Notes under the pieces: generated by a model | Seen by the model: only the letters and a program-made list of their open reading frames with translations | What the model was told of the DNA's origin: nothing | Database searches by the model: none | Part shown: positions 17,145 through 47,940 of the stretch, piece after piece | How positions within the stretch are numbered: the first letter of the stretch is position 1 | Layout of the letters: each line of letters starts with the position of its first letter | Origin: Candidatus Magasanikbacteria bacterium RIFCSPHIGHO2_01_FULL_33_34 | GTDB lineage: Bacteria > Patescibacteriota > Patescibacteriia > Magasanikbacterales > UBA922 | DNA length: 64,000 bases | Direction of reading: 5' to 3' | Assembly (NCBI GenBank): GCA_001782825.1 | Contig: MFPS01000009.1 | Span: 122,102-186,101, forward strand | Program-made: the position numbers and the translations under genes

Positions 17145-17146
17145 CC

Positions 17147-30018: not shown

Positions 30019-30082
30019 AGATTTATTTTTAAAAATTAATTTTTGATTAATTACTCTATTAGTATAGCACAAAATTGACGTT

Positions 30083-30976
30083 TTGTCAATAGTGTCGTAC
30101 AATATATTTATGAAATTATCCAAACTAATTGACAACTACCTTGATAATCTAGAAAAAAACAAAGGTAGAACAAAAAAAACTATAAAAAACTACCAATTTT
30201 ATTTATCTAGATTTGTAGATTTTTTTGGCAATAAAAAACCTGAAAAAATAAATACTGAGATAATCAAAAAATATAAAAAGTGGTTAGATAATCTCATAGA
30301 TGTACATGGAGAATCATTGAAAAAAAATACTCAAAATTATCATTTGATAGCCTTGAGAAATTTTCTAAAATATTTAAAACAAACAGACAGTCAAACATTT
30401 TCCTACCAAGATATAAAATTACAACCAAGTAAACTAAACAAACCTAGTGTTTTGAGTGAATCTGAAATTGAAAGTTTATTGAATTCTCCTCTACACGTTA
30501 AAAAAACAGGCAAAAATGATAATTTAATAAATCACAGAGATAAAGCCTTATTAGAATTATTATATTGCACTGGTTTATTGGTATCCGAAATATCAGATTT
30601 AAAAAAATCAGATATTGATCTAAATAAAAATGGATTCACACTAAAATCTAAAAATCATGCCCAAAAAACAGTCTCCTTATCACAACAAGCCAAATATTGG
30701 ATAAAACAATATCTAAACCTACGAAATGACTCCAACTCTTATTTATTCATATCTCATGACAAAAGGACTGGCAAAATAACTATAGATGGCATAACTCCAC
30801 GCACAGTCCAAAGAATAGTTAACAAATGTGCAAAGATTGCTGGGATAAATAAAAATATCACCCCTCACTCCCTAAGACATTCTTACACTCTTTCTATGAT
30901 AAAAAGTGGTGTAAACACCTCTCAAATAAAACAACTCTTGGGTATCAAAAATGATAATAGCAAAAGATATGCCTAA
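30083..30976 (+). CDS. Tyrosine-type site-specific recombinase/integrase (phage integrase/XerC-XerD family)
   Basis: 297 aa. Catalytic-domain signature RDKALLELLYCTGLLVSE (Arg I), HSLRHSYTLSMI (HxxR), and a C-terminal Tyr. Sits directly upstream of the tRNA-Arg/tRNA-His locus. Confidence 0.8.
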   Translation: MSIVSYNIFMKLSKLIDNYLDNLEKNKGRTKKTIKNYQFYLSRFVDFFGNKKPEKINTEIIKKYKKWLDNLIDVHGESLKKNTQNYHLIALRNFLKYLKQTDSQTFSYQDIKLQPSKLNKPSVLSESEIESLLNSPLHVKKTGKNDNLINHRDKALLELLYCTGLLVSEISDLKKSDIDLNKNGFTLKSKNHAQKTVSLSQQAKYWIKQYLNLRNDSNSYLFISHDKRTGKITIDGITPRTVQRIVNKCAKIAGINKNITPHSLRHSYTLSMIKSGVNTSQIKQLLGIKNDNSKRYA

Positions 30977-30989
30977 TCACTACAAAACA

Positions 30990-31018
30990 TTGACAAACGA
31001 CAAAAATGATGATACAAT
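30990..31018 (+). promoter_or_regulatory. Sigma70-type promoter upstream of the tRNA-Arg/tRNA-His locus
   Basis: TTGACA, 17 nt (AACGACAAAAATGATGA), TACAAT, then TTTGTGCATAA. Almost the same architecture as the tRNA-Ala promoter (TTGACA, 17 nt ending in GATGA, TACAAT, TGTTGCACATAA). Confidence 0.5.
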
Positions 31019-31127
31019 TTTGTGCATAATGCGCCCATAGTTTCAACCAGAGGCTGATCAGCCTTTGGCTGACAATGGATATTTCTACAAGATAGAATTA
31101 ATAAGATTGACAAAATTAACAAATAAT

Positions 31128-31199
31128 GCGCCCATAGTTCAATGGATAGAACACCAGCCTTCTAAGCTGGTTATGTAGGTTCGATTCCTGCTGGGCGTA
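31128..31199 (+). tRNA. tRNA-Arg (anticodon TCT)
   Basis: GCGCCCATAGTTCAATGGATAGAACACCAGCCTTCTAAGCTGGTTATGTAGGTTCGATTCCTGCTGGGCGTA. Cloverleaf with anticodon loop CTTCTAA and T-loop TTCGATT. Confidence 0.8.
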
Positions 31200-31215
31200 C
31201 AAAAGAATGCATCGG

Positions 31216-31291
31216 GGTGGCTATTGTATAATGGTTATTACTTCGGCTTGTGGAGCCGATAATACGGGTTCAATTCCCGTTAGCCACCCCA
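31216..31291 (+). tRNA. tRNA-His (anticodon GTG) with G-1 and encoded CCA
   Basis: G(-1)GTGGCTATTGTATAATGGTTATTACTTCGGCTTGTGGAGCCGATAATACGGGTTCAATTCCCGTTAGCCACC-CCA. Anticodon loop TTGTGGA. The extra 5' G pairs with discriminator C73, the hallmark of tRNA-His. Confidence 0.85.
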
Positions 31292-31413
31292 ATGTGTTTT
31301 TTTAATTGAAGAAAATTACTATTCCAGCATAGGCTCCTGGAAGCCGAAAGATATAGGTTGTTTCCCGTTAGCCACCCCAATGTGTTTTTTTATTTGTTCA
31401 AATTATTGTTAAT

Positions 31414-32559
31414 TTGCTATACTATAATAAAATTATAGCTTATTTATACTCTATGGAAAAAAGTAAAATTTTACTTATATCTGTTTCCACTGGTTCTGGT
31501 CATGTTAAAGCTGCTGAAGCATTAAAAAAAACTGCTAATATTTTATATCCAAAACTTGATATTGAACATATCAATATGATGGATTATGTAAGTTTGGCAA
31601 TGAAAAAAACCATTACTGAATTCTACGATATCATGGCAAAAAAAATTCCAGACTTATGGGGCTACTTTTATAAAAAAACCAATTCTGCAAAATTGGCACC
31701 TCACACAAATAAAATAGCCAGTCTTTTCAATCAATTAAATTCTGCTACTTTTTTCAAATTTGTTCTTGACTACAAACCAACTCACATACTTTGTACTCAT
31801 TTTATTCCATTATATGCTCTACTAGCTTTGCAGAATAAAAATGAATTAAATACTAAAATAAGTATTTTAATGACTGACTATTTTTCTCATGATTTGCAAA
31901 TTATAAAAAATGTTAATCATTATTTTGTCCCATCTAAAAAAACAAAATACCATCTAATTGAAAGTGGAATAAAAAATGAAAATATTACTATCAGTGGTAT
32001 ACCAATTGATCCAATATTTTATACAAAAAAAAATATAAGGGGGCTTTATAAAAAATATAAAAGTGATAAAAATAAAATAAATTTATTAATACTATCTGGT
32101 GGTCAAGGATTAGTGGATACCAGCCATATTATACAAATATTATCTAAATTAAACACACAATATAGGGTATTTGCTATAGCTGGAAAAAACGCAAACCTTC
32201 AAACTATATTAGAAAAAATAGAACCACCAAACAATGTTGAACTTCATACAATAGGTTGGACAGACAATATGGACGAATATATGAGAATTGCCGACTATAT
32301 AATTACCAAACCTGGCGGACTCACCACTACTGAATGTATTACGCTTGGTAAACCAATAATTGCAATCTCACCAATTCCTGGTCAAGAAGAATGCAATACT
32401 GAATACTTGCTTGAAAAAAATTATGGAGTTGTCGTTAGAACTCCATCAGATTTATTATATTACCTAGAAAACACCAATGAATGGACTCCTAAAATAAAAA
32501 AAATAACCTCACTGCCATCAACCAATGAGATTATATTAAAAAAACTATTAAATTTATAA
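31414..32559 (+). CDS. GT28-family diacylglycerol glycosyltransferase (MGDG synthase/UgtP/MurG-like)
   Basis: N-terminal ILLISVSTGSGHVKAAEAL and C-terminal ITKPGGLTTTECITLGKPII, typical of MGDG synthases and processive DAG glucosyltransferases. The likely true start is MEKSK at 31453. Confidence 0.75.
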   Translation: MLYYNKIIAYLYSMEKSKILLISVSTGSGHVKAAEALKKTANILYPKLDIEHINMMDYVSLAMKKTITEFYDIMAKKIPDLWGYFYKKTNSAKLAPHTNKIASLFNQLNSATFFKFVLDYKPTHILCTHFIPLYALLALQNKNELNTKISILMTDYFSHDLQIIKNVNHYFVPSKKTKYHLIESGIKNENITISGIPIDPIFYTKKNIRGLYKKYKSDKNKINLLILSGGQGLVDTSHIIQILSKLNTQYRVFAIAGKNANLQTILEKIEPPNNVELHTIGWTDNMDEYMRIADYIITKPGGLTTTECITLGKPIIAISPIPGQEECNTEYLLEKNYGVVVRTPSDLLYYLENTNEWTPKIKKITSLPSTNEIILKKLLNL

Positions 32560-32560
32560 T

Positions 32561-33058
32561 CTAAAGTCCACGAGAACAGCTACTAACAGTCCCTCCAGAT
32601 GCTATACAAGCATCATACTCACTCGTTCCAATATCATAATCAAAATAAGCTGGTGGCTTATCCTGCGTAGCATTAAGTGCTACACTAGAAACTAAAGCCA
32701 AAATTGAATAAGCACTCATAATTACAAAAATACCGATTATACCCGTACGCAAAGTGCTCTTGCCTTTTTTTACTTTTTCCTCATCCCCTGCCGAAGACAT
32801 TATCAAATATCCAGCATAAACAGAATACGCAAAAAACATTATACCAATCATCCCTAACAAAAATTTTACCAACTGAGCCACGACAATCCTTGGATCAGTT
32901 GGAATAGTATCTCCTGCGCCAGACTTATTTGCAAAAGTTTTTAATTGTTGAGTAAAATCCTGAGCATTAACTTTTGCAAAATCAACAAAACTGTAGCCTA
33001 AAAATAAAATAGTTATCAATATATATAATGTTAAAAAATTTTTTTTATGTTTTTTCAT
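32561..33058 (-). CDS. VirB2/TrbC-like (T4SS-pilin-like) small secreted protein, paralog 1
   Basis: 165 aa. Signal peptide then the two-helix module ...VYAGYLIMSSAGDEEKVKKGKSTLRTGIIGIFVIMSAYSIL, followed by a short Cys-containing tail. Confidence 0.65.
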   Translation of the reverse strand: MKKHKKNFLTLYILITILFLGYSFVDFAKVNAQDFTQQLKTFANKSGAGDTIPTDPRIVVAQLVKFLLGMIGIMFFAYSVYAGYLIMSSAGDEEKVKKGKSTLRTGIIGIFVIMSAYSILALVSSVALNATQDKPPAYFDYDIGTSEYDACIASGGTVSSCSRGL

Positions 33059-33064
33059 ATAAAA

Positions 33065-33526
33065 TTATCCAGCAAAATCATCCCAACAACTTTCATCTTC
33101 CAGACAATCAAAGCGATCAGAACTTTGAGGTTCTTGAACAGCTTTCTGTAAACCTGAAGCAACAAAACTAGTGATTGCATAGGACAAAACTACTATAAAC
33201 AGTCCTATTACTGCACCACGCATTGTAGCTGATGCTTTTTCAATCTTTTCTGATCTACCACGAGCAATTATAAACCAATATGATGCCATCGCAATCAATA
33301 TAATAAAAATTGAGCCAATAAACCCTAAAAATATCTTTATAACTGAAGCTATGGTAACTTGAGGTGCGACCGCATCAGTATAACCTGCACTAGTCTTGCC
33401 AGCATTCAATTGGCCAAGTACTTTATCATTTAAACTTCCAGCTTGAACAACATTTGTAAATAATAAAGTACTTACAAATAAAATGACTATACTAAATATA
33501 AATTTATATACACTTTTTTGTTGCAT
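33065..33526 (-). CDS. VirB2/TrbC-like small secreted protein, paralog 2
   Basis: Start moved to MQQKSVYKF (ATG at 33526) to remove the overlap. Module ASYWFIIARGRSEKIEKASATMRGAVIGLFIVVLSYAIT, with a Cys-containing acidic tail. Confidence 0.6.
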   Translation of the reverse strand: MQQKSVYKFIFSIVILFVSTLLFTNVVQAGSLNDKVLGQLNAGKTSAGYTDAVAPQVTIASVIKIFLGFIGSIFIILIAMASYWFIIARGRSEKIEKASATMRGAVIGLFIVVLSYAITSFVASGLQKAVQEPQSSDRFDCLEDESCWDDFAG

Positions 33527-33530
33527 AATA

Positions 33531-33947
33531 TTAAAGCGATTCCTCAGATGGCGCAGTTTCAAGCAAAATCCTTGGAACAATAAAGAATGTAATACTGTAT
33601 GCACTAACAGCAATCACCAAACCAATCACTGAAGCGCGAATTATATTTTTTGCTTTATCAACTTGCGCTTCTTCACCACGGGCAGTCATCCAAAGAAAAC
33701 CAGCATAAACTGTCAAACTCATAAATATGATACCAGAAAATGACATCAATATTTTTACAACCGTACCCAATGTAGCTGCAAAAGTTGTTTCACTAGTATT
33801 TTCATCATATTGAGCAGCTTTGGCAGCATCACGTAAAAGTGAATTTGAATTAGATGAAGTTCCAAAACCAATATTTGGTTGAGCAAAAATAACTGTCGGT
33901 ACAAAAATTAAACTTAATAAAGTTATAAAAAATAATATTTTTTTCAT
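33531..33947 (-). CDS. VirB2/TrbC-like small secreted protein, paralog 3
   Basis: 138 aa. Signal peptide VIFAQ. Module VYAGFLWMTARGEEAQVDKAKNIIRASVIGLVIAVSAYSIT. Confidence 0.65.
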   Translation of the reverse strand: MKKILFFITLLSLIFVPTVIFAQPNIGFGTSSNSNSLLRDAAKAAQYDENTSETTFAATLGTVVKILMSFSGIIFMSLTVYAGFLWMTARGEEAQVDKAKNIIRASVIGLVIAVSAYSITFFIVPRILLETAPSEESL

Positions 33948-33956
33948 AAATATATG

Positions 33957-34340
33957 TTATTTATTTAAAGCCCCAGCTACCAGGAAAGTAATAGCATAAG
34001 CCGACAATACAAGCACAAGTCCAATAACAGTTCCTTTTATAATTGATTTTGCTTTGTTAACTTGATCTTCTTCACCCCTAGCTGTCATCCACAAAAATCC
34101 AGCATATACCATAAGCAACAAAAACATAAGACCAACCATAGACAATGCTACATTTATAACTCGTCCACTAATAGTCCCCAAACTATCAGATGCTTCAAAT
34201 CCAGCTTGACCACGAACAGTTTCCAAAGGACTATTTGTACCACCAAAAGCATTCTTAAGACCTTGGGCAGAAACAATTTGTGGTAAAACTACACTACTCA
34301 ATAAAACTATTATTATAATTATTTTTTTTATTGAAAACAT
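33957..34340 (-). CDS. VirB2/TrbC-like small secreted protein, paralog 4
   Basis: 127 aa. Signal peptide IVSAQ. Module VYAGFLWMTARGEEDQVNKAKSIIKGTVIGLVLVLSAYAIT. Confidence 0.65.
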   Translation of the reverse strand: MFSIKKIIIIIVLLSSVVLPQIVSAQGLKNAFGGTNSPLETVRGQAGFEASDSLGTISGRVINVALSMVGLMFLLLMVYAGFLWMTARGEEDQVNKAKSIIKGTVIGLVLVLSAYAITFLVAGALNK

Positions 34341-34348
34341 ATATATAA

Positions 34349-34717
34349 TTAATTTTCTAAAACGCCACCCAATAAAACTGTGATTGCATAAGATGCCAGC
34401 ACTACAATCAAACCTATTATAGCAGCAATTACAGTATTTTTTGCTTTCTTAATTTTATCCTCACTACCACTTGCCATCATCCAACTAAAACCTCCATAAA
34501 AAACCAAAATAAAAAATAATAAACCAACCGCAGTCAAACTTCCTTTTATCATACTACCAAATGTTCCACTAACACTCTCATTGGTAATACCTGCTTTCCC
34601 GGCTACTTTACCTAAATTACCACTAGCACTATTCAATGTGTATGCTGTTGCAAAATCTGCTTGAAAAAAAGAACACAAAATTATGATAAAACAAATATTT
34701 CTTAAAAATTTCTTCAT
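34349..34717 (-). CDS. VirB2/TrbC-like small secreted protein, paralog 5
   Basis: 122 aa. Module FYGGFSWMMASGSEDKIKKAKNTVIAAIIGLIVVLASYAIT. Confidence 0.65.
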   Translation of the reverse strand: MKKFLRNICFIIILCSFFQADFATAYTLNSASGNLGKVAGKAGITNESVSGTFGSMIKGSLTAVGLLFFILVFYGGFSWMMASGSEDKIKKAKNTVIAAIIGLIVVLASYAITVLLGGVLEN

Positions 34718-34733
34718 AAAAATTTACTAGCTA

Positions 34734-35228
34734 CTACGGACAAGCGCAAAACAAACCTCCAGAATTATTATCAACACAAGCTCTACCACCACATTCTGCT
34801 GATGAAGCTGATACTGTAGTACAAGGCTCAGTTGTTACACAACTACTATTTTGTGGTGTAGGCTCAGTAGTAGGTTCTCCACTAATAGCTCTAAATACAA
34901 AAGTAGTTATCGCATACGAGGCTACCACAATAATCAAACCAATCACAGCGGCCTTGATAGTACCCAATGCTTTATCAGTTTGCTGTTCATTACCACGAGC
35001 TATCATCCAAATAACACCACCATATATCATCAATAACAAAAATAATACACCAACCATAGTTAAGGCTGCCCCGACAACACTCCCAATAATATCTACTGGT
35101 GAGCTACCAGATACCGCCCCTTTCAAGCCTGAAACATCGGCAGTTTTGTCTAAACCATAATTTGCATAAACAGTTCCAGTACCAAATAAAGAAACAATGA
35201 TTGATAAAGTGATAATTATTTTTTTCAT
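34734..35228 (-). CDS. VirB2/TrbC-like small secreted protein, paralog 6, with Cys-rich C-terminal tail
   Basis: 164 aa. Module IYGGVIWMIARGNEQQTDKALGTIKAAVIGLIIVVASYAIT, then a tail with 6 Cys. Confidence 0.65.
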   Translation of the reverse strand: MKKIIITLSIIVSLFGTGTVYANYGLDKTADVSGLKGAVSGSSPVDIIGSVVGAALTMVGVLFLLLMIYGGVIWMIARGNEQQTDKALGTIKAAVIGLIIVVASYAITTFVFRAISGEPTTEPTPQNSSCVTTEPCTTVSASSAECGGRACVDNNSGGLFCACP

Positions 35229-35236
35229 AAATTTTA

Positions 35237-35857
35237 TTACTTAGGGATACAACAGACATTATCTGTCCCACCAGTACAATAACCAACCAAGGCTGTACCA
35301 GATACACAATCTGATGGATTACTACATTCAAATCTATCTCCACACTGGCTCGTACATAAACTATCATCATTTGAAATACACACATTTGCAGTTGGACTAC
35401 AAGATACAAGACTTGTACCAAAATCACATGGCTCAGTATCACTACAAGCAACCACCGTCAAACCATCTAGTCTATTTACACACTGTACAGAAGCACCAAT
35501 AGAACGAAAGATTAATCCTACAATCACATAAGAACCTAATACAATCACCAAACCAATTACTGCTGAAACGATTGTTTTGGTAGCTTTATCTGTTTGTTGT
35601 TCATTTCCTCTAGCCGTCATCCATATTATACCACCATATATAGTCAAAAGAAAGAATATAACACTTACAAAAGCAAGCGCTCCACCTATTACTTTTCCAA
35701 TCACTTCACTAGGAGTTCCAACATTCATTGATTTTGCAGAAGCTACCGACTTCAATCCATACTCACTATTTGATTGCGCATATATTGAATCTACAGATAC
35801 CAAAAAAAATCCGATGGCTGAAAAAAAAATAATTATCAAAATAATTAATTTTTTCAT
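35237..35857 (-). CDS. VirB2/TrbC-like small secreted protein, paralog 7, with long Cys-rich C-terminal extension
   Basis: 206 aa. Module IYGGIIWMTARGNEQQTDKATKTIVSAVIGLVIVLGSYVIV, then a roughly 90-aa Cys-rich domain. Confidence 0.65.
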   Translation of the reverse strand: MKKLIILIIIFFSAIGFFLVSVDSIYAQSNSEYGLKSVASAKSMNVGTPSEVIGKVIGGALAFVSVIFFLLTIYGGIIWMTARGNEQQTDKATKTIVSAVIGLVIVLGSYVIVGLIFRSIGASVQCVNRLDGLTVVACSDTEPCDFGTSLVSCSPTANVCISNDDSLCTSQCGDRFECSNPSDCVSGTALVGYCTGGTDNVCCIPK

Positions 35858-35858
35858 A

Positions 35859-36254
35859 TTAAAAATAATAAAAAAAGCCTCTGTGCGTCGCTTGAAATAA
35901 ACTCTTCAAAACAAAGCTAGTAATTGCATACGAACTCATTATTATTGCCAATCCGATAGAAGCTCCCCAAATAATTTTTTTGGCTTTATTTACTTTTTCA
36001 TCATTTCCCATAGATGTCATCCATAAAAAGCCAGCATACAACATCAAAACCATTGTTCCAATTCCAAGAAACCCTAAAACAGTCTGAATTATAGAACCAA
36101 TACTATATCTAATATCCCTATTTTCAAGTCCAGAATACCGAGCATAATTAACACCCAATAAATCATCTTCTGTAGCTACAACTGGACTAATAACAAAAAA
36201 TCCTAGTGATATAAAAAATAATAGGGAAAAAATAATGTATCTTTTTTTTTGCAT
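35859..36254 (-). CDS. VirB2/TrbC-like small secreted protein, paralog 8
   Basis: Start at MQKKRYII (36254). Module LYAGFLWMTSMGNDEKVNKAKKIIWGASIGLAIIMSSYAIT. Confidence 0.6.
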   Translation of the reverse strand: MQKKRYIIFSLLFFISLGFFVISPVVATEDDLLGVNYARYSGLENRDIRYSIGSIIQTVLGFLGIGTMVLMLYAGFLWMTSMGNDEKVNKAKKIIWGASIGLAIIMSSYAITSFVLKSLFQATHRGFFYYF

Positions 36255-36295
36255 ATAAAATATTTGTTTATACAAACAAATGTTTGCATATATAA

Positions 36296-36356
36296 ACAAA
36301 TAGGGCAGGGCTCCTAAAGCAAGGTTTTTCCCTTACATCAGGGGCCCTGCCCTTTA
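36296..36356 (-). terminator. GC-rich hairpin terminator after pilin-like paralog 9
   Basis: On the coding strand: GGGCAGGGCCCC...GGAGCCCTGCCC followed by a T-rich run. A strongly GC-rich stem in an AT-rich background. Confidence 0.6.
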
Positions 36357-36368
36357 ATAATTTGTTTC

Positions 36369-36764
36369 TTATGTTCCGTATCCAGTTGCTGTTCCAAGTT
36401 GTACAAGTACAAAACTTGAAATTGCGTAAGCACTCAAGATAACTGCAAGACCTACAACACCAGCGATGATGATTTTTCTAGCTTCACCAACTCCTTCATC
36501 GTTACCACCAGCTGTCATCCATTTAAAACCACCGTAAAGTACTATTACTAAAGCGATTATACCTAAAAGGCTGAGAGCTACATTGATAATAGAAGCAATT
36601 GTTGTTCTTAAATCTTGATTTCCAAGACGACTAACAGTACCGTAAGTCAAACCAAAATCAGCTTCAATAGAACCAGCTAATGCAGCTGGGGCCAAAGCCA
36701 AACTAAATACCATTGCAGCTAAAACTGAAAGTCCTACCTTGTATTTTAGAATTTTCGATAACAT
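36369..36764 (-). CDS. VirB2/TrbC-like small secreted protein, paralog 9 (candidate major subunit)
   Basis: 131 aa. Module LYGGFKWMTAGGNDEGVGEARKIIIAGVVGLAVILSAYAIS. The only gene here with a strong SD (GGAGGTGA, 7 nt before the ATG), plus a strong terminator. Confidence 0.7.
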   Translation of the reverse strand: MLSKILKYKVGLSVLAAMVFSLALAPAALAGSIEADFGLTYGTVSRLGNQDLRTTIASIINVALSLLGIIALVIVLYGGFKWMTAGGNDEGVGEARKIIIAGVVGLAVILSAYAISSFVLVQLGTATGYGT

Positions 36765-36891
36765 ATTCTCACCTCCCTTCCTATTATAGATTCATTTTTC
36801 ATAGTTAAATTATACTACAAATACTTTAATTAAACAACATTAGTGTGGATAATAATTTAACTATACAATCCTACTTAAAAAATTTTATTTT

Positions 36892-37281
36892 TTATGTGCC
36901 ATAACCAGTTGCGCTACCCAGACTAGTCAATACAAAACTAGAAATTGCATAAGCACTCAAAACTATTGCCAATCCAACTACACCAGCTATAATCGCTTTT
37001 CTACCTTGACCCGCTTGTTCATCATTACCACCAGACACCATCATCTGAAAACCACCATATAATACACCCACTAATGCCAATATACCTAAAAGTCCCAAAA
37101 TAACATTAATAATTGAAGCAATCGTTGAACGCACATCTTGATTCCCCAGACGACTAACAGTACCATAAGTCAAACCAAAATCTTCTTCAATAGAACCAGC
37201 TAACACAGTTGGTGTTAAAACTAAACTAAATATTACCAAAATTAAAGTCGCAAATATATTTAATTTTATTTTTTTATTCAT
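36892..37281 (-). CDS. VirB2/TrbC-like small secreted protein, paralog 10 (near-duplicate of paralog 9)
   Basis: 129 aa. Near-identical to paralog 9 over most of its length (AGSIEEDFGLTYGTVSRLGNQDVRSTIASIINV...). No SD. Confidence 0.65.
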   Translation of the reverse strand: MNKKIKLNIFATLILVIFSLVLTPTVLAGSIEEDFGLTYGTVSRLGNQDVRSTIASIINVILGLLGILALVGVLYGGFQMMVSGGNDEQAGQGRKAIIAGVVGLAIVLSAYAISSFVLTSLGSATGYGT

Positions 37282-37298
37282 AACATTTTTAATAAAAA

Positions 37299-37685
37299 TT
37301 ATTTGGCTATGACCCCAATTAATGCGCTTAAAATTGCATACGAAGAAAATATCACAAGAATACCTATGGTTGCATAAAGCATTGTCTTGGTACCTTTATC
37401 AACTCTCTGTTCATTTCCTGCAGAAGTGAGCCATAAAAATCCACCAATAACAAAAACTATCAACGTTACTGATCCCAAAATTCCTAAACTAGTATCTATT
37501 ATTTTCTTTATCAAAGGATTAATAACCGTACCATCTTCACCGGTAACCATCTCTCCCAAAGGATTTTGTAATCTTGATACACCACTACTATCTTCTTGGG
37601 CATTAACAGATACTGAACCATACACACCCAAAAACATAAAAGAAAAAATCATATAGCCTATTATATATTTTTTGAATATTTTCAT
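37299..37685 (-). CDS. VirB2/TrbC-like small secreted protein, paralog 11
   Basis: Start at MKIFKKYII (37685). Module VIGGFLWLTSAGNEQRVDKGTKTMLYATIGILVIFSSYAIL. Confidence 0.6.
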   Translation of the reverse strand: MKIFKKYIIGYMIFSFMFLGVYGSVSVNAQEDSSGVSRLQNPLGEMVTGEDGTVINPLIKKIIDTSLGILGSVTLIVFVIGGFLWLTSAGNEQRVDKGTKTMLYATIGILVIFSSYAILSALIGVIAK

Positions 37686-37692
37686 AAAAAAT

Positions 37693-38514
37693 TTATTTAA
37701 ATACATTTAATCTATCTGATACACCAAGCACATCAAGCAAAAAACCAACTATAAAATAACCAGCAAAGACTATTACCATACCAATCACTGACGCCACCAA
37801 AACATTTTGTCCTTGTTTGAAACGCTCTGCATTACCAAATGACAATACCATTAAACCACCACCAAAAACAAAGAAAGCAAAAACAATTGCGCCTATATAT
37901 TTGAATATACTACCAGCTGCATTTGAAACAATGACCACTATATCATTTGGGCTATTACAAGTACCCAATTTTGCGCATTTTGGCAATGTTCCTAATATGC
38001 CAGCTTTAAAATCATAATCATATACATTATCCAAATATTGCAAGGCTTCACTATAACAAGTCTCAGCATCTTCATTCCATTTACAAACATCACTTACAAT
38101 ACAATCTGTCTTTTTTTGCATATATGAACAATCCGAATTGGAAAATCTAGATAAACAACTACCATCTGTTGTAAAAAAACAACCAGATCTACGTATACAA
38201 AGATTTTTAGGCAAATCATTGCAGGTAACACAGTAATTTTCTGTACAAGATACACCCACTTCAACTCTATAAAAAGACTGGTCAACATACTTTATCAATG
38301 TATCACAAGGCAATACCTCCATATCATCGCGTCTACAACCAACTGGTTTCAAACTACTCTGGCTCGGTTCTGTACCTTCTGATATTAAACAGCAACCTAT
38401 AGATTCAGCTTTTAATTCTTGAGGACTAAATATAATTGCAACAAAAAAAACCAAAAACACAAAGCTAAATTTTTGTATTTTATGAATAAATTTTTTTTTA
38501 TTGATAAATAACAT
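37693..38514 (-). CDS. Cys-rich ectodomain protein with C-terminal VirB2-like two-helix anchor (subfamily A)
   Basis: 273 aa. Signal peptide, then a roughly 170-aa domain with about 20 Cys, then IGAIVFAFFVFGGGLMVLSFGNAERFKQGQNVLVASVIGMVIVFAGYFIV. Confidence 0.6.
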   Translation of the reverse strand: MLFINKKKFIHKIQKFSFVFLVFFVAIIFSPQELKAESIGCCLISEGTEPSQSSLKPVGCRRDDMEVLPCDTLIKYVDQSFYRVEVGVSCTENYCVTCNDLPKNLCIRRSGCFFTTDGSCLSRFSNSDCSYMQKKTDCIVSDVCKWNEDAETCYSEALQYLDNVYDYDFKAGILGTLPKCAKLGTCNSPNDIVVIVSNAAGSIFKYIGAIVFAFFVFGGGLMVLSFGNAERFKQGQNVLVASVIGMVIVFAGYFIVGFLLDVLGVSDRLNVFK

Positions 38515-38520
38515 TTTATA

Positions 38521-39903
38521 TTACATTGTTTGTTGAATAATTTTTACAGCATTTCCTATTAAACCAATATTTCTCTTGAGTTCACTTTCTTTTTCTCCAA
38601 CTGGTTTTAAGTAATTGCTAAATAATTCATCAAATGCTTTTTCTGCTGAAATAATATTTTTACCTCTATACCAATTTTCTGCTGTGATTGCTTGTAATGC
38701 AAACGGGCCAATATTCACATCTTCTTTTTGTACCAATAATTGCTCGCGCAAAGGACTTGGTTGACCAGTTTTTTTGGAATATTTTTCAACATTTTCAGGC
38801 AATGTTATGAATCTAACAAAATCCCATGCCTCTGATTTGTGTTGCGATTTTGCAACCACAGACTCAACCCAATAATTAGCGACGTTTGAAGGATCTGCAG
38901 AATTCAACTGTGGTACTGGCTCAATATCAAATTTAATCTGAGGGCCTCTAGCTTTAAGCCGAGGGAGATCATAGGCAAAACCAAAATAAAATACGCTTTT
39001 ACCACGCGCAAATTCATCCAATGAATTCGCCATTTTTGCATTCCAGGAATATACATCTTTTGTTGGTCTGGCAAAATCAGAATAAAATTGTAATGTTTGA
39101 AGTACAGGATGATCACTTGACCTGTCAGTCAACCCATTAGCAAAAGTTACTCTATCTCCCTGTGACATAATGAGACTATTTTGCATCATCAACAAAGAAA
39201 TTATATCAAAAGAATTATCAATATTTTCCCCAAGACCTAGGGCAACTCCTGATTGGATAATATTACCATCACGATCATATTTGGTTGATTTTTTGACAGC
39301 ACTAGAAAACTCATCCCAAGTTTTTGGTGGAATTGGAATTCCAGCTTTATCAAGCAATTCTACATTGTAATACATCGCCAATGTATCCATAAACAAAGGA
39401 AGTCCATAAACTTTGTCACCTACAATAATATCCTGCGCTACCGTTGTCACATATGATTTTTTGATATAATCAATTGTTGGCATTGCATTATTTTCTGTTG
39501 AAATAACAGTTTTTGGTTTAAATTCACCTTCAGTAAAAACATTAGTTACTTGAACATTATCAGGCATAGGATCAAGCCTATTCAAATATTTGTTAACCCA
39601 TCTAGGATGCATAGAAACAATATCCGGAGCATTATCATCAGCCAAAGCATTGGCAAACAAACTATCAAATTCATCATATCTAACTTGTTTTACTTTTATA
39701 GTTACATAACTATGCAAATTTTGATATGAGACTGCAAATGATCTCAACGCATCAACATCATTATAAACAGTCCAGTAATTTATTGTGATTGGTTTTACTG
39801 CTTCTTGTTGTTCTTGTGTAAGACCTTTACAACCCAACCCAGTCAAAACAAATATACTTATCAAAGAAAATATTATTAAGTATCTTTTATTTATTAATTT
39901 CAT
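38521..39903 (-). CDS. ABC transporter substrate-binding lipoprotein (SBP family 1, sugar-type). Orphan; no permease or ATPase gene adjacent
   Basis: 460 aa. Signal peptide with lipobox-like LTGLGC. Length and composition fit a maltose/sugar-type SBP. Confidence 0.6.
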   Translation of the reverse strand: MKLINKRYLIIFSLISIFVLTGLGCKGLTQEQQEAVKPITINYWTVYNDVDALRSFAVSYQNLHSYVTIKVKQVRYDEFDSLFANALADDNAPDIVSMHPRWVNKYLNRLDPMPDNVQVTNVFTEGEFKPKTVISTENNAMPTIDYIKKSYVTTVAQDIIVGDKVYGLPLFMDTLAMYYNVELLDKAGIPIPPKTWDEFSSAVKKSTKYDRDGNIIQSGVALGLGENIDNSFDIISLLMMQNSLIMSQGDRVTFANGLTDRSSDHPVLQTLQFYSDFARPTKDVYSWNAKMANSLDEFARGKSVFYFGFAYDLPRLKARGPQIKFDIEPVPQLNSADPSNVANYWVESVVAKSQHKSEAWDFVRFITLPENVEKYSKKTGQPSPLREQLLVQKEDVNIGPFALQAITAENWYRGKNIISAEKAFDELFSNYLKPVGEKESELKRNIGLIGNAVKIIQQTM

Positions 39904-39908
39904 ATTAT

Positions 39909-41201
39909 TTATACAAATAAACCAAATATAAATTTAAGTATAACATAACTAGACAAAATTACTACGACACCCAAAGATGACCAAGTCATCATTTTCAAAG
40001 CTTTACTAGTTTTCTCAGAATTCCCTCTAGCAGTCATCCACATAAATCCACTACCAACAAACATAGCGAGCGCCACACTGCCAGTGAAACCTAATATATA
40101 TTCTATAATCTTACCAACCAAAGTTTGAATCTGTTCTGTTTTGGTCCCAGAACCCAATTTTAGTTTATTGAGATTAGCAATACTATCTCCAACATCACAA
40201 CCCAACAACCCCGGTCTTTCACCTGTCTTTGGGCAAAGGCCTTCACATTCACGTGCTATATATTCTCTACATTTTGTTAAGGCTTCTCCAGTACCTTCTC
40301 CTTCTTTTTTACATACTTCATCAATTTGTGTCTGATCTTCACAAAAACTTAACACAGGTTTATCTTCAACCGCTTCTAATACAGTTTTGCAAGTAACATC
40401 AAACCAAAAATCTGGAAATAATTGATCAGAAAAATTAACTAAACCACATTTATCATAAGTAAAATTTGTTTGTATCCATTCTTTATCAAGACATTTTTTT
40501 TCTTCAACTGGCTGTTCTACTAGTGTTGGTATACCACAAAAACCATGACCATCTTCAGTAAAACTTAATTCACAATTAACTTGATTGACAGATCCACCAC
40601 AACCAAAACCCCCTTCATCATCTGTATTAATAAAACTACAATTAGCATTTGGAATTATTCTGATTACTCGTGTAGGTATTGGTTGGAATGCTAGTGGACC
40701 AATCCCAGGGGTAGTAGGCATACTACCAAGTATAGGACTACAATTGTCCTTAAACAGTCCCTCATCAAACGTATAACCACCAATTGTACTGGCAAACTCT
40801 CTAACAAATTTTTGTATTGCTTCAGTAAAACTAAAACAAGCAAAGCCACTTTCTGGAAATGCAATACTACCCAAATTTCCTGCAAGCGCACGATAACCAG
40901 ATGCCTCAAGATTCCTACGAACCCCATGACATGACGGGCAATCATCAGTACTTATACCAGTCGGAGGGACTTGCATATTTCTTATACTGATACTACAGCT
41001 ACATTGCCCAGCATCAGTCTTACTTCTGACAACCACTGCTTCTCCCAAAGAAGTAGTATATTCAGGTGGTGTAGCAGATTGAAAATTAGCGCATTGTTGA
41101 TTGGTCTGCGCATTAACTTTTACTCCAAAAAATAATCCTGTTATCAAAGAAGTAAAAAATAATATAGTAATAAATATTTTTTTTGAAAAAAATATACTCA
41201 T
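39909..41201 (-). CDS. Cys-rich ectodomain protein with C-terminal VirB2-like two-helix anchor (subfamily B)
   Basis: Start at MSIFFSKK (41201). About 30 Cys in the ectodomain. C-terminus GSVALAMFVGSGFMWMTARGNSEKTSKALKMMTWSSLGVVVILSSYVIL. Confidence 0.6.
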   Translation of the reverse strand: MSIFFSKKIFITILFFTSLITGLFFGVKVNAQTNQQCANFQSATPPEYTTSLGEAVVVRSKTDAGQCSCSISIRNMQVPPTGISTDDCPSCHGVRRNLEASGYRALAGNLGSIAFPESGFACFSFTEAIQKFVREFASTIGGYTFDEGLFKDNCSPILGSMPTTPGIGPLAFQPIPTRVIRIIPNANCSFINTDDEGGFGCGGSVNQVNCELSFTEDGHGFCGIPTLVEQPVEEKKCLDKEWIQTNFTYDKCGLVNFSDQLFPDFWFDVTCKTVLEAVEDKPVLSFCEDQTQIDEVCKKEGEGTGEALTKCREYIARECEGLCPKTGERPGLLGCDVGDSIANLNKLKLGSGTKTEQIQTLVGKIIEYILGFTGSVALAMFVGSGFMWMTARGNSEKTSKALKMMTWSSLGVVVILSSYVILKFIFGLFV

Positions 41202-41205
41202 AAAT

Positions 41206-42240
41206 TTATTCTGGTCTAAATTCAATACTGACACCAAATGATTTTATAATAAAATCTGTTATAAAATACGCGCCAAACACAATGATTAACCCTATCACAG
41301 CTGCCACTATTATGCCCTTACCTTTGGCTACCTTCTCTTGATTTCCAAAAGACAAAACCATAGTAATACCACCTATAATGAAAAAAATAAAAGCAAGAGC
41401 GCCCACATATTTGAATATTTCTTTGGCAAACATAAGTGGTACACCTAGCAAATCCCCAATACTATTACAAGTTCCAGCGACTGCACATGGTGGCATAAAT
41501 TTGCCACTATCTCTAGTACCATAAGTTTCATTTATATATTGTTGATATTCATCAATACACGTAGTTGATTCAAAATCCCATTTACATTTGTTACTTCTAG
41601 CACAATCAAATTCACTATTTATGTGTGGACATTCACTACCTCTCTCTGCTTCAAAACATGTTCCTTGTCCTTCAGACCAAAAACAAGCTCCTGTGTTATT
41701 ACAAGATCGTTTATCATTCTTGTTATGACATTCATCAATTCCATTGTATTTTCTCCAATAATCTACAGCAGTATTACATATATCTGAATATTTAGGTGGA
41801 GGCACATAATCCAAACATTTCATTTCAGTCTCCATATACTGTGGACATTCAGTTGGCAAACCTTCTCCTCCCATAACTCCTGAAATAAACTCAACTTGAT
41901 CAAGTTTATCTGATATACCACTCAAACCTCTACCAACTATAGCCCCAAAATCAAAAAGACCAAAATATTCATTGCAATTACTTTTTGTTTGTACACCTAT
42001 TTTACATGGCTTTGCTGTTGTTTTTAAACGACACCCTGATAAACTCCAATCACTTGTACACCTGTCCATACCTACTACATCCCCTATCCATGTTTTTCCA
42101 CACCAATTCGTCCAACTGCTTTTCTCTGTTCTAATTTCATTAATACAACAAACTGGCTCACTTTCACCTTGAGCAAAAACAATATTTGGACTAAAAAATA
42201 ATCCCATTACAAATATGCTGATTATTAAAAACTTTTTCAT
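41206..42240 (-). CDS. Cys-rich ectodomain protein with C-terminal VirB2-like anchor (subfamily A paralog)
   Basis: 344 aa. C-terminus VGALAFIFFIIGGITMVLSFGNQEKVAKGKGIIVAAVIGLIIVFGAYFIT is homologous to 37693-38514. The N-terminal Cys-rich domain is divergent. Confidence 0.6.
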   Translation of the reverse strand: MKKFLIISIFVMGLFFSPNIVFAQGESEPVCCINEIRTEKSSWTNWCGKTWIGDVVGMDRCTSDWSLSGCRLKTTAKPCKIGVQTKSNCNEYFGLFDFGAIVGRGLSGISDKLDQVEFISGVMGGEGLPTECPQYMETEMKCLDYVPPPKYSDICNTAVDYWRKYNGIDECHNKNDKRSCNNTGACFWSEGQGTCFEAERGSECPHINSEFDCARSNKCKWDFESTTCIDEYQQYINETYGTRDSGKFMPPCAVAGTCNSIGDLLGVPLMFAKEIFKYVGALAFIFFIIGGITMVLSFGNQEKVAKGKGIIVAAVIGLIIVFGAYFITDFIIKSFGVSIEFRPE

Positions 42241-42245
42241 AAAAA

Positions 42246-43373
42246 TTAACTAAAAATACTGAAAATAAAATCCAAAATCACATAACTAGACAAGATTACC
42301 ACAACACCCAAAGATGACCACGTCATCATTTTCAAAGCTTTGCTAGTTTTTTCAGAATTCCCTCCTGCAGTCATCCACAAAAATCCACTGCCAACAAACA
42401 TAGCGAGCGCCACACTACCGGTGAAGCCCAATATATACTCTATAACCCTACCTAAAAATGTTTGGATTGGTTGATCCCCTTCAATATTAAGTTGATTTAA
42501 AGCTCCATAAAGTTTTGCCACATCACAACCCAAATTACCCTTTTCTGAACCATCAGCACATTTTCCTTCACATTCATTTATCAATCTTTCCACACAATTA
42601 TCTAATTCATCTCCAGAAATTCCATCTTTACTTTTTTTACAATACTCTGATATTTTATCAACTGAACAATTTTCAAATAAATTCTCATCAATATCATCTT
42701 TAGTATGTAGTTTACAAGTCAAACTAAAATCTAATACATCATTATGCACTAGCCCCATCCAACTACAACCTCGTTCACTACAGATTCTATTTATCTCCTC
42801 AGTCCAATTTATAATTAAATTAAAATCATAAGTATCACCTTCACAATTTGATTCATTTATAATACCTTCAGTAGTACCTAATCGTTCTCTCATGCTTTGT
42901 TCTGTAGCAATCAAATCACCAACCAAAAAATTACAATTACTATTTATCATTGCAGCTCTAAAAGCATCGAACAAATCAAACCTAGAATTCAAAGCATAAA
43001 CTGTTGTACTCTGTCCTTGACAATATTGAGTTGATGGCCCTAATTCTTCATAATTAGGACTGTTTACTCCTATTACTTTTGCTCTACTGATTTGCAATCC
43101 ACATTCACAATATCCTGTTTCATATAATTTTTTTTTATATTCAACATATGCAACACATTCTGCTCTTCTGGCATCAGTACAATCACTACCATAATCCTCC
43201 AATATATTACATATATCTGTGTAATACTCTTGAGCACCCACAGAATCACAATCTTCATTGTAGCCTGGTTGATTTGTACTATCTAATTGCGCAGAAACAT
43301 TTTGAGTAAATACAAAAAATAAAAGCGCTATAAAAAAAGCTTTTAAAAAATAAATTTTTTTTCTTGCCTTCAT
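42246..43373 (-). CDS. Cys-rich ectodomain protein with C-terminal VirB2-like anchor (subfamily B paralog)
   Basis: 375 aa. C-terminal roughly 90 aa nearly identical to 39909-41201 (EGKCADGSEKGNLGCDV...GSVALAMFVGSGFLWMTAGGNSEKTSKALKMMTW). The N-terminal domain is divergent. Confidence 0.6.
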   Translation of the reverse strand: MKARKKIYFLKAFFIALLFFVFTQNVSAQLDSTNQPGYNEDCDSVGAQEYYTDICNILEDYGSDCTDARRAECVAYVEYKKKLYETGYCECGLQISRAKVIGVNSPNYEELGPSTQYCQGQSTTVYALNSRFDLFDAFRAAMINSNCNFLVGDLIATEQSMRERLGTTEGIINESNCEGDTYDFNLIINWTEEINRICSERGCSWMGLVHNDVLDFSLTCKLHTKDDIDENLFENCSVDKISEYCKKSKDGISGDELDNCVERLINECEGKCADGSEKGNLGCDVAKLYGALNQLNIEGDQPIQTFLGRVIEYILGFTGSVALAMFVGSGFLWMTAGGNSEKTSKALKMMTWSSLGVVVILSSYVILDFIFSIFS

Positions 43374-43388
43374 TTTATTAAATTATTT

Positions 43389-44237
43389 TTACAACAACCC
43401 TTCCTTCTTGGCGAAATGAATAGTTGTTTTTAATAAGGCTAATTTGTTTCCGGTATCAAAATATTGACCATCATATTCATAAGCATAAAATGGTTTTTTT
43501 TGTGTCAATGAATTGGCTGCGTCAGACAACCATATCTCACCATCTTTACCTTTGCCTTGATCCTCTAAATGACTCCAGATATCCTTGGTAAAAATATATC
43601 TCATACCACCGACAATTAATCCAAATGGTGAAGTCTTGGATACTGCTGGTTTTTCTACAAATTTTTCCACCCGAAAAATTTTTTTGTCTTTTGTTCCTTT
43701 TGCGTAGACATTGCCATATTTGGTCATTTCTTGTGGGTCTTCAATTCGCTGTACACCAATCACTGATGAACCAACCTCATTAAAAACTTTCACCAATTGT
43801 TTGATAACTGGAACTTCCGCATCAATGATACTGTCACCATCAGAAAAAGCAAAAGCATCGTCTCCTATAAAATCCTTGGCACACAATAGCGCATGTCCAT
43901 TACCTTTTGGTTCACTTTGACGAGTATAAAAAAACCGTACTTTTTTACAAAGATCAATCAAAGGTTGAACTCTATCCAATTTTCCTTTGCTCTCCAAGAA
44001 CCTTTCAAGCGCCTCATCTCGATCAAAATGATCCTCAATAGCTCGCTTTTGAGAGCTAGTTACAAACATAATATCTGTGATTCCACTCTCTGCCATTTCC
44101 TCAACAATATATTGAACTACCGGCTTATCAAGCACCGGCAACATTTCTTTTGGCATGGCCTTGGTAGCTGGCAAAAATCTAGTCCCCACCCCAGCAACGG
44201 TAATAACTCCTTTGGTTATTTTTGTTTGTTTTGGCAT
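43389..44237 (-). CDS. galU: UTP--glucose-1-phosphate uridylyltransferase
   Basis: VITVAGVGTRFLPATKAMPKEMLPVLDKPVVQYIVEE, the canonical GalU N-terminus. Confidence 0.9.
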   Translation of the reverse strand: MPKQTKITKGVITVAGVGTRFLPATKAMPKEMLPVLDKPVVQYIVEEMAESGITDIMFVTSSQKRAIEDHFDRDEALERFLESKGKLDRVQPLIDLCKKVRFFYTRQSEPKGNGHALLCAKDFIGDDAFAFSDGDSIIDAEVPVIKQLVKVFNEVGSSVIGVQRIEDPQEMTKYGNVYAKGTKDKKIFRVEKFVEKPAVSKTSPFGLIVGGMRYIFTKDIWSHLEDQGKGKDGEIWLSDAANSLTQKKPFYAYEYDGQYFDTGNKLALLKTTIHFAKKEGLL

Positions 44238-44307
44238 ATCTTTTATCAGTTATTAACACAGATATTATAGCAAAAAAAATATTAAAAATAAAGAGTCTAA
44301 AATTAAA

Positions 44308-45603
44308 TTATTGTATTGTCTCCAGCCAATTGCCAATAAGCCAACCACCACCCGGACCACTAGTAAAATTCAAATTCACCAAACCAGATTCATAAATAAT
44401 AGTTGAATTATTTTCAACTTGCATTTGATAGGCCGTAGCTTCTTTCAAAGTAGCTGAATTTTGTATAAACAATAATCCATAAGGCGCATATAATATTCCC
44501 CGAAGTTGAGTATTGTTTTGCATCATTATAGCTGGATCAGAAGTATCCAATTGATTAGCAGTCGTAATAAACATTATATAACTATCATTTGGAGTATTGC
44601 AGTCCACAATATCTTCATTATAACCCTCAGAACCACAAATTATTACATTATTTTTTAGATCAATATCACCATCTACTATCATAACCCCACTATTATCCCC
44701 ATAACCAGCATTCAATTCAATTCCGGCACTATTTTCCAAAACTAAATTTCCAGTTACCCATACTGTTCCATCAAATGTAAAAGTATCATCACCGTTACCA
44801 CTTATTCTTAAATCTCCATTAATCCTAACTGGCCCCAAAGAAAAATCCATATCATCAATATCCTGTGTACCAATTGTACCACCCGCAAGAGCGGCCGCTT
44901 TCCAACTATTTATTTGATCATCTGTTATAGGAAAATCTACAGTATCGGGATCCGCACTACCCGGAAATTCAGCTCCATTAAAAGTATTACCACCACTATC
45001 AACCGCATAATATGCATCACCATCAACAACAGTATCTGTAATTGTATGAGCACGAACATCTCCACCAACATTAAAATTATCAACCAGACCAGATGGACCA
45101 GCAACCCAAACATCACCAGTTGCATTAGCAGAGTTCACTCCAACAATATTACCATTTGAATATATACTCCCTTCAATTGTACTATCATTTTTCATTAAAA
45201 TTCCACCTTGACCCACCTGCATACCATAATTAAAACTAATCCCTTCTGTTGCTGGCACTAAACTAACTTCCACACCTCTCACAAATGAATCCTTGTCTGC
45301 AAATGATTCTATAACATAAACTCCATCATCCAAACCAAGACCTATTTCAGCCGTAGCACCTGCCAATGACAAAGTATATTCCCAATCATAAGACAAATCC
45401 GGATCAATCATTCGAAGTAACATATCTTCCAATCCTGCCTCAGCCGTATAATAACTTTGCGCTGAACCAACTACATTGCGAATTAATTTTTCTCTGGATA
45501 TCATCGATGAAGTTAAACTCATCACAATAATAAGACCAACTATGGTTGCCAAAAGCACACTGACAATTGCTGAATATCCTTTATTATTTAATAATTTACC
45601 CAT
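44308..45603 (-). CDS. Large pilus-associated protein (N-terminal pilin-like TM helix, Gly/Asn/Asp-rich beta-rich body; PilY1/tip-adhesin-like)
   Basis: 431 aa. N-terminus MGKLLNNKGYSAIVSVLLATIVGLIIV resembles a degenerate prepilin leader. First gene of a four-gene prepilin-type run. Confidence 0.45.
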   Translation of the reverse strand: MGKLLNNKGYSAIVSVLLATIVGLIIVMSLTSSMISREKLIRNVVGSAQSYYTAEAGLEDMLLRMIDPDLSYDWEYTLSLAGATAEIGLGLDDGVYVIESFADKDSFVRGVEVSLVPATEGISFNYGMQVGQGGILMKNDSTIEGSIYSNGNIVGVNSANATGDVWVAGPSGLVDNFNVGGDVRAHTITDTVVDGDAYYAVDSGGNTFNGAEFPGSADPDTVDFPITDDQINSWKAAALAGGTIGTQDIDDMDFSLGPVRINGDLRISGNGDDTFTFDGTVWVTGNLVLENSAGIELNAGYGDNSGVMIVDGDIDLKNNVIICGSEGYNEDIVDCNTPNDSYIMFITTANQLDTSDPAIMMQNNTQLRGILYAPYGLLFIQNSATLKEATAYQMQVENNSTIIYESGLVNLNFTSGPGGGWLIGNWLETIQ

Positions 45604-45607
45604 AATA

Positions 45608-46147: not shown

Positions 46148-46150
46148 AAA

Positions 46151-46672: not shown

Positions 46673-46676
46673 ATTA

Positions 46677-47650: not shown

Positions 47651-47691
47651 AAAAAACAAAAAACCGCCCTTTCAGACGATTTTTCTGTTTT

Positions 47692-47931: not shown

Positions 47932-47940
47932 TTGTTTCTA

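Follow-up and report, generated by a model that had tools for sequence, protein, structure and literature searches.

A tandem array of fifteen VirB2-like pilin genes in Candidatus Magasanikbacteria, probably served by an unlinked type IV secretion system

Through analysis of a 64,000-nucleotide stretch of the ultra-small groundwater bacterium Candidatus Magasanikbacteria bacterium RIFCSPHIGHO2_01_FULL_33_34 (GCA_001782825.1, contig MFPS01000009.1, positions 122,102 to 186,101; hereafter the window), a tandem array of 15 genes has been characterized at window positions 32561-43373. Judged by sequence comparison, its products combine a Sec-type signal peptide with an alpha-helical membrane hairpin homologous to the VirB2/TrbC pilins of type IV secretion systems (T4SSs). 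The locus is probably a chromosomal, vertically inherited array of VirB2-like (PF18895) T4SS pilins of Candidatus Magasanikbacteria (Patescibacteria, class ABY1), polymerised by a T4SS encoded elsewhere in the genome.

The array consists of 15 successive open reading frames (ORFs) on the minus strand, numbered from g15 to g01, the last array gene. The sole interruption is one ORF of 460 residues (38521-39903, minus strand) encoding a substrate-binding protein (SBP). A hidden Markov model (HMM) of g09 homologs matches exactly the 15 array ORFs in the window and none besides; the array is therefore real and far beyond chance. Hydropathy analysis revealed in every protein (i) an N-terminal hydrophobic signal segment with a small-x-A end, often followed by Q; (ii) two further hydrophobic helices; (iii) a short charged loop between them. 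The first-pass annotation, made from the letters of the window, had described this composition correctly, including the single SBP gene. Three ATG starts were set inside the longest ORFs, giving g02 (33065-33526), g08 (35859-36254) and g13 (39909-41201). After this correction neighbouring genes lie about 20 bp apart or less, or overlap slightly, and the only two exceptions are the gaps on either side of g09 (36369-36764).

PF18895 (T4SS_pilin) is the best Pfam match of all 15 proteins, and 13 of them exceed its gathering score of 26.6 bits (28.4-39.8 bits). The two sub-threshold proteins, g02 (20.7 bits) and g12 (16.4 bits), are divergent paralogs recognised by the local HMM and by alignment. 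The TrbC/VirB2 family PF04956, also named in the first-pass annotation, is matched by five paralogs, all under its gathering score of 27.9 bits; the best are g10 (20.9 bits), whose match spans the full length, and g15 (20.5 bits). For profile-profile comparison with hhalign, five genuine VirB2/TrbC genes were taken from annotated plasmids, aligned, and compared to the g09 family. The two profiles align over 84 columns with a probability of 78%, E = 1.8e-5 and a score of 35.8, against 13.9 for a reversed control and at most 18.4 for 40 controls shuffled column-wise, globally or in blocks. Three elements are in register in this alignment: the A-x-A cleavage site, the end of helix 1 with its G-x-W-M motif, and helix 2. 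Four paralogs also match NCBIfam NF045849, the pilin-like protein of mycoplasma integrative conjugative elements (ICEs), at E = 2.5e-8 to 1.9e-4 (21-33.5 bits, cut-off 40). An AlphaFold2 model of g09 places the helices at residues 52-84 and 89-126, and the predicted local distance difference test (pLDDT) of the hairpin is above 90. A sequence profile search of the PDB with the g09 family returned a single, spurious match (E = 0.73), and a tblastn search with g10 against 72,556 PLSDB plasmids gave no match at E <= 10. The earlier placement of the array proteins in a VirB2/TrbC-like pilin family is upheld by the Pfam and hhalign results, and with its 15 divergent PF18895-type genes and one intervening SBP gene the locus falls within the published definition of a pilin array (PMC12102498), which asks for at least two divergent VirB2/PF18895 genes, either in tandem or with a single non-pilin gene between them.

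Beyond the shared module the paralogs differ mainly at their termini. Seven of them, including g09, have almost no ectodomain, with about 20-35 residues before helix 1. These short pilins are g03 (33531-33947, 138 residues, PF18895 31.9 bits), g04 (33957-34340, 127 residues, 39.8 bits), g05 (34349-34717, 122 residues, 33.2 bits), g08 (131 residues, 28.8 bits), g09 (131 residues, 36.7 bits), g10 (36892-37281, 129 residues, 39.0 bits) and g11 (37299-37706, 135 residues, 33.5 bits). In four paralogs the module is preceded by an N-terminal domain of about 190-310 residues with 16-20 cysteines: g12 (37693-38514, 273 residues, 16 Cys), g13 (430 residues, 20 Cys, 30.9 bits), g14 (41206-42240, 344 residues, 20 Cys, 31.8 bits) and g15 (42246-43373, 375 residues, 18 Cys, 32.1 bits). 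Four others carry Cys-containing C-terminal tails: g01 (32561-33058, 165 residues, 2 Cys, 32.3 bits), g02 (153 residues, 2 Cys), g06 (34734-35228, 164 residues, 6 Cys, 35.4 bits) and g07 (35237-35857, 206 residues, 12 Cys, 28.4 bits). The earlier description of the module as C-terminal throughout thus applies to most of the proteins and fails for the latter four. All eight extensions contain an even number of cysteines (2, 2, 6, 12, 16, 20, 20 and 18), and their presence at both ends of the hairpin fits the VirB2 topology, in which both termini are outside the cell. A search of 5.8 billion clusters for the g14-type ectodomain yielded only 11 proteins at E <= 0.001, counting the cluster of the query itself; the Cys columns of the ectodomain are conserved. 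The AlphaFold2 model of g14, made from 10 sequences, has a mean pLDDT of 57.5, which is insufficient for fold searching, and is of low confidence except for residues 160-235 and the hairpin. In one related locus (L060) two giant ORFs of 704 residues (7880-9994) and at least 3459 residues (10001-20381, running off the locus) carry a pilin-like module at the N-terminus; the hairpin may also anchor very large surface proteins.

Mean module identity among the 15 paralogs is 29% (range 20-71%), and sub-families are formed by g09/g10 (70-71%), g13/g15 (65%), g06/g07 (49%) and g12/g14 (43%). The type A ectodomain genes g13 and g15 share a 191-nt tract of 88% identity; together with the type B paralogs g12 and g14 they form the order g15(A)-g14(B)-g13(A)-SBP-g12(B), which suggests duplication of a two-gene cassette. 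The DNA repeat families D1-D9 of the window correspond to the coding modules of the array. The repeat search revealed no long inverted repeats that would indicate shufflon-type or invertible variation, and all array genes are co-oriented.

One paralog, g09, stands apart from the others. It had been put forward as the candidate major subunit in the first-pass annotation for its strong Shine-Dalgarno sequence and GC-rich terminator, and both features were confirmed: GGGAGG lies at 36777-36772, and a hairpin 3' of the gene (36302-36353, minus strand, inverted repeat I17) has a folding energy of -44 kcal/mol (z = -8.06) and is followed by a T-rich stretch. A putative promoter-like site, read from the sequence, is located 5' of the gene (36809-36837, minus strand; TTGTTT, 17 nt, TATAAT). 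Its -10 element is perfect and its -35 element has 3/6 matches, hence it is unlisted by the consensus scan. The generic sigma-70 and terminator scans gave match counts no higher than the shuffled expectation; the terminator scan also lists a terminator-like site 3' of g01 (32534-32503, minus strand). The neighbouring g10, formerly described as a near-identical partner of g09, is in fact 70% identical to it at the protein level and about 76% at the DNA level.

The standing of g09 as candidate major subunit is strengthened by comparison with 79 related loci from other species, labelled mostly Magasanikbacteria or just Patescibacteria. Reciprocal-best orthologs of g09 are present in 77 of these loci at a median identity of 54%, the highest among the paralogs, as against 0-51 loci and 35-47% for the others. 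The g10 gene has no reciprocal-best ortholog in any of the 79 and is a lineage-specific duplicate of g09. A hairpin equivalent to the g09 terminator sits 3' of g09-type genes in 76 loci; compared to other pilin genes, the 90-nt region on the 3' side of g09-type genes has a median folding energy of -31.2 versus -13.5 kcal/mol and a gap of 112 versus 12 bp (Mann-Whitney p = 3e-29). Such a pattern of orthologs, hairpins and gaps would be predicted for a major subunit that is highly expressed and has a terminator to restrict downstream read-through. The g09 gene is a conserved core paralog with its own Shine-Dalgarno sequence and strong terminator, and by these sequence features it is the probable major subunit. 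In GCA_001784315.1 (L006, contig MFQM01000032.1) a 16th pilin gene lies between g10 and g09 (9478-9873). Its residues 1-52 are those of g09 and residues 53-131 those of g10, so that the gene may be a true recombinant duplicate or else an assembly artefact caused by the repeats.

The same HMM revealed a median of 8 module genes per related locus, with a maximum of 15 and at least 12 genes in 13 of the 79 loci. In this lineage, then, large arrays are the rule and go beyond the published range. Several loci are labelled 'Gammaproteobacteria', and these labels look like mis-binning. One related pilin array (L092) has small 23S_rRNA_IVP family genes (PF05635) scattered among its pilin genes, at 9559-9972 and 17825-18202. 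Proteins 100% identical to g09 occur in Candidatus Magasanikbacteria assemblies of the Rifle aquifer as well as in further metagenomes. The locus is present in six other assemblies, which are 100% identical to the window in every array gene they contain, and two flanking segments are 99.7-99.8% identical; because of this identity the analysis of strain variation and selection gave no signal. At the other extreme, loci with an SBP only 33-56% identical to that of the window have the same gene order, which supports a chromosomal and vertically inherited array.

The question of the assembly machine was approached through Pfam scans of 46 other ORFs of the window, which revealed no VirB4, VirD4, VirB6, T4SS ATPase or relaxase family, in agreement with the first-pass annotation. 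These ORFs comprise housekeeping genes, galU, a glycosyltransferase gene and a type IV pilus (T4P) set (PilB, PilC, PilM, PilN and minor pilins). The annotation had offered two candidates, the adjacent T4P or an unlinked T4SS, and the evidence favours the second. The array genes that the window shares with assembly GCA_001784315.1 are 100% identical, and this assembly is listed as class ABY1 and VirB4-positive (PMC12102498, Table S1). In addition, Table S3 of the same study gives two other Magasanikbacteria genomes a VirB4-TrsD-VirB3 cluster and flags their VirB2 as not near virB4. On both grounds an unlinked T4SS is the likely assembly machine, preferred over the T4P. The proposed mechanism would begin with Sec export and signal-peptidase cleavage of each pilin. 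The cleaved hairpin would reside in the membrane with both termini outside and the short charged loop in the cytoplasm, from where an unlinked VirB4-type T4SS of the monoderm kind, resembling mating-pair formation class FATA (MPF-FATA-like), would extract the pilins and polymerise them. The bulk of such a filament would be g09, and the other 14 paralogs would serve as low-abundance or alternative subunits, with the terminator 3' of g09 setting a high major-to-minor subunit ratio. The Cys-rich extensions may then form disulfide-bonded ectodomains on the outer face, acting in host recognition or adhesion. A tube-like conduit of 8.6 nm, running from a Saccharibacterium to its host, has been observed by cryo-electron tomography and has no assigned protein (PMC11880426); its size is compatible with a conjugative-type pilus.

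Several points weigh against an array of filament subunits polymerised by an unlinked T4SS. No pilus made of such proteins is known from a Patescibacterium, and the T4SSs of other monoderm bacteria are not known to include VirB2. A VirB4-like gene was found beside the array in neither of two loci retrieved with the SBP as query and in none of the 79 related loci, among which Walker-A ORFs adjoining the T4P minor pilins, at the place of PilB in the window, were left unscanned, so that genomic linkage gives no direct support; the presence of virB4 in this genome rests on the published table. The set of 79 loci was itself fetched with a g09-type query, which biases the comparison of conservation toward g09. 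Subunits with some 190-310 residues in their N-terminal domain would be difficult to accommodate as the repeating unit of a VirB2-type filament, and the giant module proteins of L060 cannot be repeating subunits at all. Lastly, fold searches with the helical hairpin are uninformative because it resembles thousands of unrelated proteins. Large ORFs near related arrays were also considered as VirB4 candidates and rejected; they encode a phosphoenolpyruvate-utilising enzyme, a ribonucleotide reductase, an SMC protein, a tetratricopeptide repeat protein and T4P minor pilins.

In a rival explanation the module would be a membrane anchor only; the locus would encode 15 individually displayed surface proteins or adhesins, not polymerised, and the VirB2 homology would reflect ancestry and not present function. 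Cys-containing ectodomains or tails on 8 of the 15 proteins, the giant relatives, the generic nature of the hairpin fold and the lack of any T4SS gene linked to the array in the 79 loci are all in keeping with such display. Against it, the seven short paralogs, among them g09, the most conserved and probably the most expressed, have nearly nothing to display. The hairpin, the G-x-W-M motif and the loop are strongly conserved across relatives, which suggests constraints of protein-protein or protein-lipid packing. Moreover, in other Patescibacteria, VirB2-like pilin genes occur near virB4 in 1,135 of 1,948 VirB4-positive assemblies (PMC12102498), and such pilins are essential within a T4SS cluster (PMC10633639). 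We therefore regard pure anchoring as an unlikely explanation that nonetheless deserves to be kept in mind, and retain the VirB2-like pilin array with an unlinked T4SS as the preferred one.

The array is bounded by a glycosyltransferase gene and by galU, with the T4P genes past galU; its former placement between galU and the T4P genes has to be corrected. The galU-like UTP-glucose-1-phosphate uridylyltransferase gene (43389-44237, minus strand) lies 15 bp upstream of g15 (TIGR01099 281 bits, cut-off 326.8; NTP_transferase 101 bits). At the other end, a glycosyltransferase gene on the plus strand (31414-32559), convergent with the array end, resembles monogalactosyldiacylglycerol (MGDG) synthase and diglucosyl-diacylglycerol (DAG) synthase (PF06925 76.9 bits; NF010135 182 bits, below cut-off). 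The SBP inside the array belongs to family 1 (carbohydrate, CUT1-type; SBP_bac_8 84 bits, SBP_bac_1 72 bits), and no ABC permease or ATPase gene accompanies it in the window. In the window and in homologs of loci L007-L030 the array-embedded SBPs carry G-x-G-C, mostly G-[FLIQ]-G-C-K-G, directly after the signal peptide. The motif suggests a non-canonical lipobox and, thus, lipoprotein anchoring via an unusual recognition sequence in this lineage. Among the 79 related loci an SBP homolog is present in 63, always adjoining a pilin gene, a galU homolog in 49, and an MGDG-synthase/diglucosyl-DAG-synthase-like transferase beside the array in 23, in most cases converging on the end of the array. Both loci retrieved with the SBP as query have the same order of T4P minor pilins, galU, SBP and array. 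The lipoprotein-like SBP and galU are accordingly conserved companions of the array. In another locus (L091) a galU-SBP-pilin block (8053-18151) is situated about 7 kb from dnaN (44-1162), probably near the replication origin, and echoes the published origin-proximal T4SS genes of Patescibacteria.

Conjugative pili are stoichiometric pilin-lipid assemblies. A bolder proposal joins galU, the lipoprotein SBP, the array and the UgtP-like glycosyltransferase into one unit that would build an organelle at the interface with the host. Its T4SS-type filament would combine a single conserved major pilin with ectodomain-bearing minor pilins and have as lipid partner a glucosyl-DAG made from GalU-derived UDP-glucose, and the SBP would capture host carbohydrate where the cells touch. 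Such a structure would be a feeding or attachment conduit and not a DNA-transfer pilus. The proposal is speculative, and we give it a low probability.

Assembly of the array subunits by the neighbouring type IV pilus, or their incorporation into it, is very improbable. The T4P minor-pilin operon (44308-47588, minus strand; proteins of 303, 185, 179 and 431 residues, with an N_methyl motif in three of the four) lies directly upstream of galU on the same strand as the array, and PilB, PilC, PilM and PilN are encoded at 49175-53700 (Pfam scan of window ORFs). The layout with T4P genes next to the array recurs in many Magasanikbacteria loci, where the minor-pilin trio likewise carries N_methyl. 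The array proteins themselves lack the class III prepilin leader (G-F-T-L-I-E type, N_methyl PF07963) needed for PilD processing and T4P assembly: none of the 15 matches PF07963 even at E <= 1, whereas the neighbouring minor pilins do. Where type IV pilins have one N-terminal helix and a globular head, all 15 have a Sec-type signal peptide and a hairpin of two helices. Furthermore, in the more distant relatives L033, L047, L048, L066, L067, L071 and L075 the T4P linkage is lost and galU, SBP and array stay together. In the window itself the T4P operon, galU and the T4SS-type array are co-oriented and close (44308-47588 and 49175-53700), and in many Magasanikbacteria two filament systems thus share one block. 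At the far end of the window, a 455-residue protein (62593-63960) contains both a lamin-tail domain (LTD) and nucleic-acid-binding domains of the OB-fold type, an unusual architecture possibly connected with extracellular DNA handling.

The least probable explanation, that the array is cargo or the pilus module of an ICE devoted to ordinary DNA conjugation, is invited by two features some 1.2-2.5 kb away from the end of the array, namely a tyrosine recombinase gene (30083-30976) and a duplication of the tRNA-His 3' end, and by the mycoplasma ICE protein being the closest NCBIfam model, and it is contradicted by the same chromosomal position, from galU to the glycosyltransferase gene, in highly diverged genomes, by an array GC content (0.32-0.35) inside the range found across the window, by the absence of relaxase, coupling protein and VirB4 from the window scans, by the rarity of relaxases in Patescibacteria (109 in 3,035 genomes; PMC12102498), and by the duplicated tRNA ends being just 88 bp apart and not bracketing the array. 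The tRNA-His gene itself is located at 31217-31291; its 3' end (31274-31308) is repeated at 31362-31396, 88 nt downstream (35 nt, 97% identical), and this duplication near a tyrosine recombinase resembles the att-type scar of an integrating element. An Rfam scan of 30000-48000 revealed two tRNAs only.

Arrays of VirB2-like pilins, many of them far from virB4, have already been described in Patescibacteria (PMC12102498, PMC10633639, PMC12857230). Quinonero-Coronel et al. 2025 reported 441 such arrays of 2-11 genes (PMC12102498), and in the cultured relative Southlakia epibionticum ML1 the T4SS cluster includes a series of predicted pilins that Wang et al. 2023 found to be essential, remarking that Gram-positive T4SSs normally work without pili (PMC10633639). 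A 2025 review counts six pilins in the S. epibionticum T4SS cluster and considers these T4SSs unique among monoderms in their potential to make conjugative pili. The present locus resembles the published arrays (PMC12102498; S. epibionticum; the 'Sec secreted array' of TM7x) in its family, PF18895, in the low mean pairwise identity (29% here, 25% reported), and in a chromosomal, relaxase-less context often far from virB4. It differs from them in the number of genes (15 versus a reported maximum of 11), in one pair of 70% identity (reported maximum 54%), in the embedded lipoprotein-like SBP, the galU and UgtP-like flanks and the adjacent T4P minor pilins, and in the Cys-containing extensions of eight members. 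In contrast to S. epibionticum, whose pilin genes form part of the T4SS cluster, the present array is not linked to virB4. PMC12102498 did not single out class ABY1 for its arrays, and the rows for two Magasanikbacteria genomes in its Table S3 list 1-3 VirB2 hits, against the HMM median of 8 per locus obtained here; the published counts underestimate this class.

Compared to the Gram-negative VirB2/TrbC pilins (PF04956; Agrobacterium T-pilus), the array proteins have the same A-x-A site, short mature N-terminus, two helices, charged loop and G-x-W-M end of helix 1, and profile-profile homology is detectable. They remain below the PF04956 gathering score, have ordinary signal peptides of about 25-35 residues instead of a leader of about 47, are not accompanied by VirB1, VirB3 or VirB4, belong to a monoderm host and in many cases are fused to ectodomains. 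Divergent tandem VirB2 copies, read as surface variation for host interaction, are likewise known from Bartonella and Anaplasma phagocytophilum (as cited in PMC12102498); those are PF04956-type, fewer in number, without an embedded SBP, and lie in or beside the Gram-negative VirB operons of intracellular animal pathogens. Mbov_0395 and MMCAP2_0565 of mycoplasma ICEs (NF045849) share a two-helix module of 70-80 residues and a wall-less or monoderm T4SS context. However, each is a single gene within a conjugative element and not a chromosomal array.

It follows that the novelty claimed in the first-pass annotation was overstated, since loci of this class are already published and the present one is a large, unlinked case. 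Four features are, as far as could be found, undescribed in the literature: the lipoprotein SBP inside the array, the flanking UDP-glucose and glycolipid genes, the terminator conserved 3' of the probable major pilin, and the paralogs fused to ectodomains; large arrays (median 8, up to 15) as the norm in this lineage also seem to be new.

The Patescibacteria constitute a large share of bacterial diversity and appear to live attached to host cells. In the sole species of the group tested so far, the T4SS and its pilins are essential, and the present locus leaves that picture unchanged. It does offer, in g09 and its orthologs, a clear candidate major pilin for antibodies, cryo-electron microscopy and expression studies. 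The ectodomain-fused pilins could determine host range, and the conserved sugar-binding lipoprotein, together with the UDP-glucose and glycolipid genes, hints at what the structure may need or carry.

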